This document shows positions 27,645 through 28,646 of a DNA stretch of 64,000 nt, in pieces. Under the pieces are notes generated by a model, which was not told the DNA's origin, did no database searches, and saw only the letters and a list, made by a program, of their open reading frames with translations. Both the position numbers and the translations under genes were made by a program. Source of the stretch: Escherichia coli. GTDB taxonomy: Bacteria; Pseudomonadota; Gammaproteobacteria; Enterobacterales; Enterobacteriaceae. How positions within the stretch are numbered: the first letter of the stretch is position 1; each line of letters begins with the position of its first letter. The stretch lies in NCBI RefSeq assembly GCF_041248615.1, contig NZ_CP158426.1; one strand, written 5' to 3'.

Positions 27645-27944
27645 TTAACCGCGAAGCTGTTGCTGCTTGAGGGTCGTTTTAACCAGACGCCAGGCGCTCC
27701 ATATGCCAAAACCGCGTCTGGCCCAGCGGACCAGCATATTGGGATGGCGAATCGTCCAGATCGCCATCACGCTACTGCCAACCAGCGCCCAGGAGCGCAG
27801 ACTTAGCAGCATATTCCAGCGACGATCGTAAGCGCCTGTTGCCTCCAGCCATTCACGACGACTGGCAGAAAGAGCCAGCCGTTGTTGCTGGATCTGGCTA
27901 AGCAGTTGCGCCTTACGTCGTTCACGTTCGACTTTACTGCTCAC
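27645..27944 (-). CDS. yqjK: Small protein YqjK (99 aa, GTG start)
   Basis: ORF track 27645..28046; conserved product starts at in-frame GTG giving (M)SSKVERERRKAQLL...; overlaps the yqjE 3' end by 11 nt. Confidence 0.7.
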   Translation of the reverse strand: MSSKVERERRKAQLLSQIQQQRLALSASRREWLEATGAYDRRWNMLLSLRSWALVGSSVMAIWTIRHPNMLVRWARRGFGIWSAWRLVKTTLKQQQLRG

Positions 27945-28338
27945 GGGACTCCTCCTCGAGCAGCTGCCGATCGTTTGCCAGCTCATGGCGTGTATGGCGC
28001 AGCAAGGTGGATTTACGCGATTTACGTAACGTCCAGATACCGCCAATCAGTGCCAGTAGCAGCAACACCACGGTGGTGGCAATCATCGCATTCAGGCGAT
28101 ATTGCGGATCAACCGCCCAAATAATCAGCACCATCAGGCTCATAAGACCAAATGCAGCGAAAAGCATCGTCAGGCCCAGCATCAGTAAAAGTTGAAAGAG
28201 ATTCGCTTTTTCCTCTTCCAGCTCCACCACCGCCAGCCGCAGACGTGTTTCCACCATTTCAACCATGATGGAAACAATTCGCTGCCCGATGCCCAGAACG
28301 CTTTTACCGGGCCCTTGCGCGTGATGAGTGTCCGCCAT
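27934..28338 (-). CDS. yqjE: Inner-membrane protein YqjE (DUF1469)
   Basis: ORF track 27934..28407 trimmed to MADTHHAQGPGKSVLG... (134 aa). Confidence 0.88.
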   Translation of the reverse strand: MADTHHAQGPGKSVLGIGQRIVSIMVEMVETRLRLAVVELEEEKANLFQLLLMLGLTMLFAAFGLMSLMVLIIWAVDPQYRLNAMIATTVVLLLLALIGGIWTLRKSRKSTLLRHTRHELANDRQLLEEESREQ

Positions 28339-28340
28339 AA

Positions 28341-28646
28341 TTAACGACGCGACAGCAGAACGCCGAGCACTACACCGATTGCAGCGCCAATGCCCACGCC
28401 AGTCCACGGATTTTCACGCACATACTCATCGGCACGCGCCGCCGCGACACGGGTTTGTTTGGCGATGGCATCACCGGTTTCACCCAGGCGATAACGGCTC
28501 TGTTTCAGTGCCTGCTCCGCTTTGCTACGAATCTTACTCAACTCTTCTTTCGACTTCTCGCCAGATGAGCTAAGCACCTCTTCCAGCGTATCGGAAAGGG
28601 ATTTCAACTCAGCACGCAGATGTTCCGTAGTGTGTTCTTTCGACAT
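28341..28646 (-). CDS. yqjD: Membrane-anchored ribosome-binding protein (ElaB/YgaM/YqjD family)
   Basis: 101 aa ORF with C-terminal transmembrane helix. Confidence 0.9.
   Translation of the reverse strand: MSKEHTTEHLRAELKSLSDTLEEVLSSSGEKSKEELSKIRSKAEQALKQSRYRLGETGDAIAKQTRVAAARADEYVRENPWTGVGIGAAIGVVLGVLLSRR

Follow-up and report, generated by a model that had tools for sequence, protein, structure and literature searches.

The 64,000-nucleotide (nt) stretch of Escherichia coli DNA analyzed here (assembly GCF_041248615.1, contig NZ_CP158426.1; called the window in the following) carries three small genes, yqjD, yqjE and yqjK, between positions 27645 and 28646. The analysis concerns the start codon of yqjK and the way in which the three genes might be translated together. 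According to the sequence and the list of open reading frames (ORFs), all three genes lie on the minus strand, which is also the strand of the start codons, Shine-Dalgarno (SD) sequences, hairpins and polymorphic site described below. yqjD (28341-28646) starts with ATG and encodes 101 amino acids, as seen from its ORF, its Pfam matches and the RefSeq annotation. yqjE (27934-28338, TAA stop codon at 27934-27936) encodes 134 amino acids and yqjK (27645-27944, GTG start codon) 99 amino acids, and these assignments agree with the annotation and with matches to PF07332 and PF13997, respectively.

Both junctions are narrow. The yqjD-yqjE junction reads TAA-TT-ATG (28336-28343), with the yqjD stop codon at 28341-28343, a spacer at 28339-28340 and the yqjE ATG at 28336-28338. 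yqjE and yqjK share the 11 nt GTGAGCAGTAA (27934-27944), in which the yqjE stop codon is included. A preliminary description of this DNA had given the gene names, the 2-nt gap and the 11-nt overlap, and all of them agree with the sequence, the ORF list and RefSeq.

The RefSeq boundaries are the same in strain TUM14771, which is 100% identical, and in K-12 MG1655, where the genes are b3098 (3249375-3249680), b3099 (3249683-3250087) and b3100 (3250077-3250376). A 1.7-kb query around the locus matched several E. coli chromosomes with 100% identity. Of 5426 complete genomes, 5422 contained the region and four did not. One of 5424 matching places was plasmid-borne, and two copies were present in at least one genome. 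With high confidence, the region is identified as the 3' portion of the yqjCDEK operon of E. coli with the boundaries as annotated, in which yqjK starts at the GTG and the three genes would be translated as a relay. The gene boundaries are already known from the reference annotation, and the feature as such is ordinary.

Start codon of yqjK

In the window, three in-frame codons are candidates for the start of yqjK: GTG at 27942-27944, ATG at 27984-27986 and TTG at 28044-28046. Only the GTG has an SD sequence. This element, GAGGAGGAG (27949-27957), is located 4 nt 5' of the GTG and is formed by Glu-Glu-Glu codons near the C-terminus of YqjE. The calculated energy of its duplex with the anti-SD sequence is -11.8 kcal/mol, which places it among the strongest 0.4% of all positions of the 4.3-kb locus. 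The corresponding values are +1.9 kcal/mol for the ATG, 14 codons 5' of the GTG, and -1.5 kcal/mol for the TTG, 34 codons 5' of it.

The locus was then compared with that of 80 other Enterobacteriaceae species, which together with the window gave a set of 81. The SD sequence of yqjK had a median energy of -9.3 kcal/mol across this set and reached -6 kcal/mol or lower in 70 of the 81 species; in alignment A3, conservation of its GGAGGA motif exceeded 90%. The codon aligned with the GTG was of start type in every species (GTG in 52, ATG in 26 and TTG in 3), far beyond chance, and the columns TGAG at the yqjK start were invariant in the same alignment. An in-frame stop codon was present at most 13 codons 5' of the yqjK start in 60 of the 81 species, and at most three codons away in 52. 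Therefore, no extension of yqjK is possible in these 60 species.

Pairwise codon differences were counted per frame among the 11 sequences that have the 11-nt overlap. Within the 14 codons 5' of the GTG, the yqjK frame had 41 synonymous and 335 non-synonymous differences and the yqjE frame 248 and 84. On the 3' side of the yqjE stop codon the pattern was reversed, with 509 synonymous and 218 non-synonymous differences in the yqjK frame and 53 and 646 in the yqjE frame. This switch indicates that the yqjK frame is under selection from the GTG onward. An exhaustive profile search identified full-length YqjK homologues of 91-101 amino acids with 25-60% identity, and their N-termini aligned with that of the GTG product.

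Thus, the SD sequence, the start-type codon in all 81 species, the upstream stop codons, the switch in substitutions and the N-termini of the homologues form five independent lines of evidence, which all pick the GTG at 27942-27944 as the start of yqjK. This start had been proposed in the preliminary description, which had also mentioned the TTG of the ORF list but had overlooked the nearer in-frame ATG; the latter is rejected by the same evidence.

Translation of yqjD, yqjE and yqjK

The three genes differ in their initiation signals. yqjD is preceded by the SD sequence GGAG (28653-28656), located 6 nt 5' of its ATG, with an anti-SD energy of -6.4 kcal/mol. The same value is the median over 78 species, 77 of which have an energy of -6 kcal/mol or lower. 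For yqjE, all 81 species lacked an SD sequence (median anti-SD energy +0.7 kcal/mol, best -1.7 kcal/mol). N-terminal peptides of both proteins from K-12 are included in the available part of the TRAINSPOTTER supplement (PMC13245402), MSKEHTTEHLR and SKEHTTEHLR for YqjD and those beginning MADTHHAQGPGK and ADTHH for YqjE, and as far as this part of the source goes, they confirm the annotated starts of YqjD and YqjE in that strain.

The spacing between the genes is conserved as well. yqjD and yqjE are separated by 2 nt in 63 species, including the window, and by 1 nt in 17, and they overlap by 1 nt in a single species, so that the spacing is +1 or +2 nt in 80 of the 81 species. This is within the range of -8 to +10 nt that is used as a criterion for coupling; such spacings predict termination-reinitiation and are enriched among genes for subunits of complexes (PMC10666635; reviewed in PMC12548453). 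At the yqjE-yqjK junction, a 4-nt overlap of the NTGA type was the most frequent arrangement (45 species), followed by overlaps of 11 nt (11 species), 1 nt (11 species) and 8 nt (9 species) and by a 2-nt gap (5 species). The window belongs to the class with the 11-nt overlap, and its spacing of -11 nt stands against -8, -4, -1 or +2 nt in 70 other species, which are within the -8 to +10 nt range.

Across these classes the yqjK start is fixed and the yqjE stop codon shifts, with YqjE being 130-135 amino acids long. The classes with 11-nt and 8-nt overlaps have the other relative reading phase and show a 1-nt gap immediately 5' of the start codon (alignment A3, column 51). It is likely from this alignment that the 11-nt overlap of Escherichia is a lineage-specific variant of the more common 4-nt NTGA overlap. 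If 1 nt was deleted close to the 3' end of yqjE, its stop codon would have shifted 7 nt downstream with the yqjK start unchanged; the yqjE frame would then run through the former TGA and end at a TAA within codons 3-4 of yqjK.

More distant loci have a comparable layout. Homologues with 25-43% identity on metagenomic contigs (loci L082-L086) show the same compact order of DUF883, holin-like and YqjK genes, with yqjD-yqjE gaps of 1, 2 and 9 nt; yqjE and yqjK overlap by 14, 4 or 8 nt or are 2 nt apart. In one of these loci the DedA and DoxX neighbours are kept. One record, L029 (CACSKA010000008.1), is titled Chryseobacterium sp. 18061 and contains an Enterobacteriaceae-type locus, whose yqjE-yqjK junction is nearly identical to that of the Citrobacter sp. 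18056 record. This assembly is probably mislabelled or contaminated.

From these observations we infer that the three genes are translated as a relay. yqjD would be begun by ordinary SD-dependent initiation. Ribosomes that have just terminated on yqjD would then probably reinitiate on yqjE 1-2 nt downstream, which is suggested by the missing SD sequence of yqjE. For yqjK, initiation would take place at the strong SD sequence contained in the codons for the acidic C-terminus of YqjE, with either newly recruited ribosomes or those that are completing yqjE, and given the strength of this SD sequence, yqjK may be initiated de novo.

A predicted RNA hairpin (27936-27964) covers the SD sequence and the GTG of yqjK, with a folding energy of -15.5 kcal/mol and a z-score of -3.9. 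By prediction, this hairpin could make yqjK depend on the translation of yqjE. All examined Escherichia sequences except L005 are predicted to form it strongly, and most other genera are not. Its z-score was -2 or lower in 15 of the 81 species and the median per species was -0.48, and RNAalifold gave no consensus structure for it across the set. A conserved RNA structure that masks the ribosome-binding site of yqjK as a general mechanism was therefore rejected, since it failed with RNAalifold, with explicit pair counting and with folding of each species.

Several points weigh against the interpretation of the locus given above. The -11 nt spacing of the window is outside the -8 to +10 nt range of Huber et al. 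(PMC10666635). Transcription start sites were predicted upstream of yqjE and yqjK by global mapping (PMC10746276), so that some independent expression of yqjE or yqjK is possible. The coupling is deduced from sequence only, and in explicit pair counting over the 81 species the covariation of the hairpin was no better than in shuffled sequences. The available text of the TRAINSPOTTER N-terminomics table (PMC13245402) contains no row for YqjK (b3100), and YqjK is not mentioned in the supplements of the INRI-seq (PMC9825163) and TetRP (PMC4909307) studies.

The spacing and the predicted transcription start sites, together with the very strong SD sequence that yqjK has of its own, would fit an arrangement in which the starts are as annotated and translation is uncoupled. 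Each gene would then be begun by a free 30S subunit, partly on internal transcripts, and the close spacing would reflect genome compaction. Such an arrangement is judged to be unlikely. Although all 81 species lack an SD sequence at yqjE, N-terminal peptides of YqjE were detected, and the yqjE start follows the yqjD stop codon by 1-2 nt in 80 of these species. In the part of the TRAINSPOTTER table that was available, support from Ribo-RET and INRI-seq is given for yqjD and none for yqjE, which fits a weak de novo initiation of yqjE. Moreover, even in homologues with 25-43% identity, the position of the yqjK start relative to the yqjE stop codon varies only between -2 and +14 nt. Translation of the three genes as a relay therefore remains the preferred interpretation.

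Upstream in-frame codons and the polymorphic site

The two upstream candidates for the yqjK start were weighed against the GTG by the same kinds of evidence. The ATG at 27984-27986 would give a YqjK of 113 amino acids, as in some NCBI records of E. coli and E. fergusonii (P0001, P0013). As a start codon, ATG is superior to GTG, and the frame is open from this codon in the window strain and in about ten related species. These points are outweighed by the remaining observations, and a start at this ATG is very improbable. The codon has no SD sequence (+1.9 kcal/mol) and appears as a by-product of the His-Glu codons CAT GAG of yqjE. In K-12 and in Escherichia sp. MOD1-EC7003 it is followed two codons later by TAG, the position is occupied by GTG in E. 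albertii and by ACG in Escherichia sp. E1V33, and in most of the 81 species the upstream ATG is missing or interrupted by a stop codon. The 14 additional codons evolve like a non-coding frame (41 synonymous versus 335 non-synonymous differences), and none of the distant homologues has a 14-codon N-terminal extension. On this evidence, the 113-amino-acid form is largely refuted.

The TTG at 28044-28046, from which the mechanical ORF list derives a YqjK of 133 amino acids, is favoured only by being the first start-type codon past the upstream in-frame stop codon, and can practically be dismissed, being a rare start codon without SD sequence (-1.5 kcal/mol) whose use would make yqjK overlap yqjE by 113 nt, whose extension shows 65 synonymous versus 484 non-synonymous differences in the yqjK frame and adds 34 amino acids with no Pfam match, and whose frame is blocked by in-frame stop codons in 60 of the 81 species as well as in K-12. 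This codon is reached by the ORF list because the caller takes the first ATG, GTG or TTG after a stop codon. The suspicion in the preliminary description that the extension is an artefact was thus confirmed by the missing SD sequence, the stop codons and the substitution pattern. Both the TTG and the ATG are best described as chance in-frame codons inside yqjE.

That the frame is open at all in the window can be traced to a polymorphic site at 27978-27983. Read in the yqjK frame, the window has AGC TGG and K-12 has AGT TAG, which contains an in-frame stop codon. In yqjE, the same change is a synonymous exchange of a Leu codon, CTG in the window and TTA in K-12. Judged from the K-12 sequence, this stop codon already excludes the longer forms of YqjK in that strain. 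A search with exact 81-mers identified the K-12 form in 1184 and the window form in 1534 of the 5422 complete E. coli genomes that contain the region, the former number meaning that at least 1184 genomes have the exact K-12 haplotype of 81 nt. Both states are therefore common within E. coli.

The CTG allele removes the in-frame TAG and is thus the reason why the ORF list extends yqjK upstream in the window. Since the same allele leaves the upstream frame open, it also accounts for the 113-amino-acid YqjK records at NCBI. This is relevant for annotation quality: in strains with the CTG allele, ORF callers and NCBI records can stretch yqjK to 113 or 133 amino acids, and these forms should be treated as errors. 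Beyond the existing annotation, the analysis adds the rejected ATG and the polymorphism that opens its frame, the missing SD sequence of yqjE and the likely NTGA origin of the 11-nt overlap.

Neighbouring features, protein families and related systems

A G+C-rich hairpin with a stem of 7 bp (GGCCGGA/UCCGGCC, 27616-27634) was predicted by folding and begins 11 nt past the yqjK stop codon. It is followed about 12 nt further on by a T run and, beyond this, by a promoter-like site of yqjF at 27560-27589. The hairpin was not called by the terminator scan because the T run does not adjoin the stem; it could represent the operon's end or a weak terminator located before the promoter-like site of yqjF. 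In the scan for promoters and terminators, sites were no more numerous than in shuffled sequence, and a scan of positions 27000-30000 against Rfam with E-values up to 1 gave no match. The ORF list also over-extends other genes on the minus strand, namely yqjF with 160 amino acids (27066-27548) versus 130 annotated (27066-27458), yqjC with 127 (28684-29067) versus 122 annotated (28684-29052), and yqjE with 157 from a GTG at 28405-28407 versus 134 annotated.

YqjD belongs to the DUF883 or ElaB-YgaM-YqjD family, with scores of 49.5 bits for PF05957 (threshold 25.4) and 57 bits for PF19029 (DUF883_C; threshold 27). Pfam identifies in it the N-terminal DUF883 domain and the C-terminal glycine-zipper tail anchor by which the family is defined. 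YqjE is an inner-membrane protein and matches Phage_holin_3_6 (PF07332) over residues 19-127 with 75.8 bits (gathering threshold 28.4). The locus is part of the chromosomal core without phage context. YqjK matches the Pfam family YqjK (PF13997) with 87 bits (gathering threshold 28.1) over residues 14-86 of the 99-amino-acid form. In the AlphaFold2 model, YqjK consists of helices 2-66 and 68-98 with a mean predicted local distance difference test (pLDDT) score of 80.6, and it is predicted to be a two-helix membrane protein; an older ab initio model showed a two-helix transmembrane bundle (PMC3667494). Variants of YqjK were found in several records (P0007, P0022, P0039, P0002). In some Shigella and Salmonella proteins, 10-13 internal residues of the N-terminal helix are duplicated in tandem, as with a repeated LDLSASRREW, and one protein from a metagenome assembly (ENA), which is 97% identical to that of the window, has lost its stop codon and gained a C-terminal extension of 25 amino acids.

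YqjD is a tail-anchored protein of the inner membrane, and in K-12 it binds and inactivates ribosomes at the membrane (bioRxiv 10.1101/2024.08.16.608256; PMC10746276). The operon is sigma-S-dependent and repressed by CsrA, and growth arrest upon over-expression is the sole phenotype reported for YqjE (PMC10746276). Neighbours resembling yqjE and yqjK are conserved across the DUF883 family (bioRxiv 10.1101/2024.08.16.608256). A tentative idea, considered possible but rather less likely than not, is that YqjD, YqjE and YqjK form one membrane complex, made in fixed proportion via the relay, in which YqjE and YqjK would control or anchor ribosome hibernation by YqjD. If so, the conserved packing of the genes would be a design feature and not simple compaction. 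From the missing SD sequence of yqjE and the conserved contacts between stop and start codons, it is predicted that the synthesis of YqjE and YqjK is tied to that of YqjD, a prediction that bears on the ongoing study of YqjD as a ribosome-hibernation factor.

Among known systems, the closest is the yqjCDEK operon of K-12 (b3097-b3100), which has the same genes in the same order and of the same lengths, with the 2-nt gap, the 11-nt overlap and the GTG start, and whose YqjD and YqjE proteins are identical in sequence to those of the window. It differs by 20 of 1002 nt, by the substitutions D24A, T35A and V81I in YqjK, and by the in-frame TAG 12 codons 5' of the yqjK GTG, which is missing from the window.

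With regard to the junctions, the locus resembles the coupled NTGA and TAATG pairs described by Huber et al. (2019, 2023) and by Brown and Wade (2025), in which co-directional genes have stop and start codons that overlap or lie almost next to each other. In common with these pairs, most relatives of the locus have the canonical spacing of -4 or -1 nt between yqjE and yqjK, whereas Escherichia has the 11-nt overlap in the other reading phase, which is rarer than spacings of -4, -1 or -8 nt (PMC12548453).

A similar layout is also found in the PA3040-PA3042 operon of Pseudomonas aeruginosa, whose expression varies strongly with the growth phase and reacts to cell-envelope stress (PMC11302039). 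PA3042, the third gene there, reportedly lacks a recognised domain and occurs only in P. aeruginosa and P. paraeruginosa (PMC11302039). In contrast, the third gene of the window is a clear member of the Pfam family YqjK and is found across the Enterobacteriaceae and beyond.

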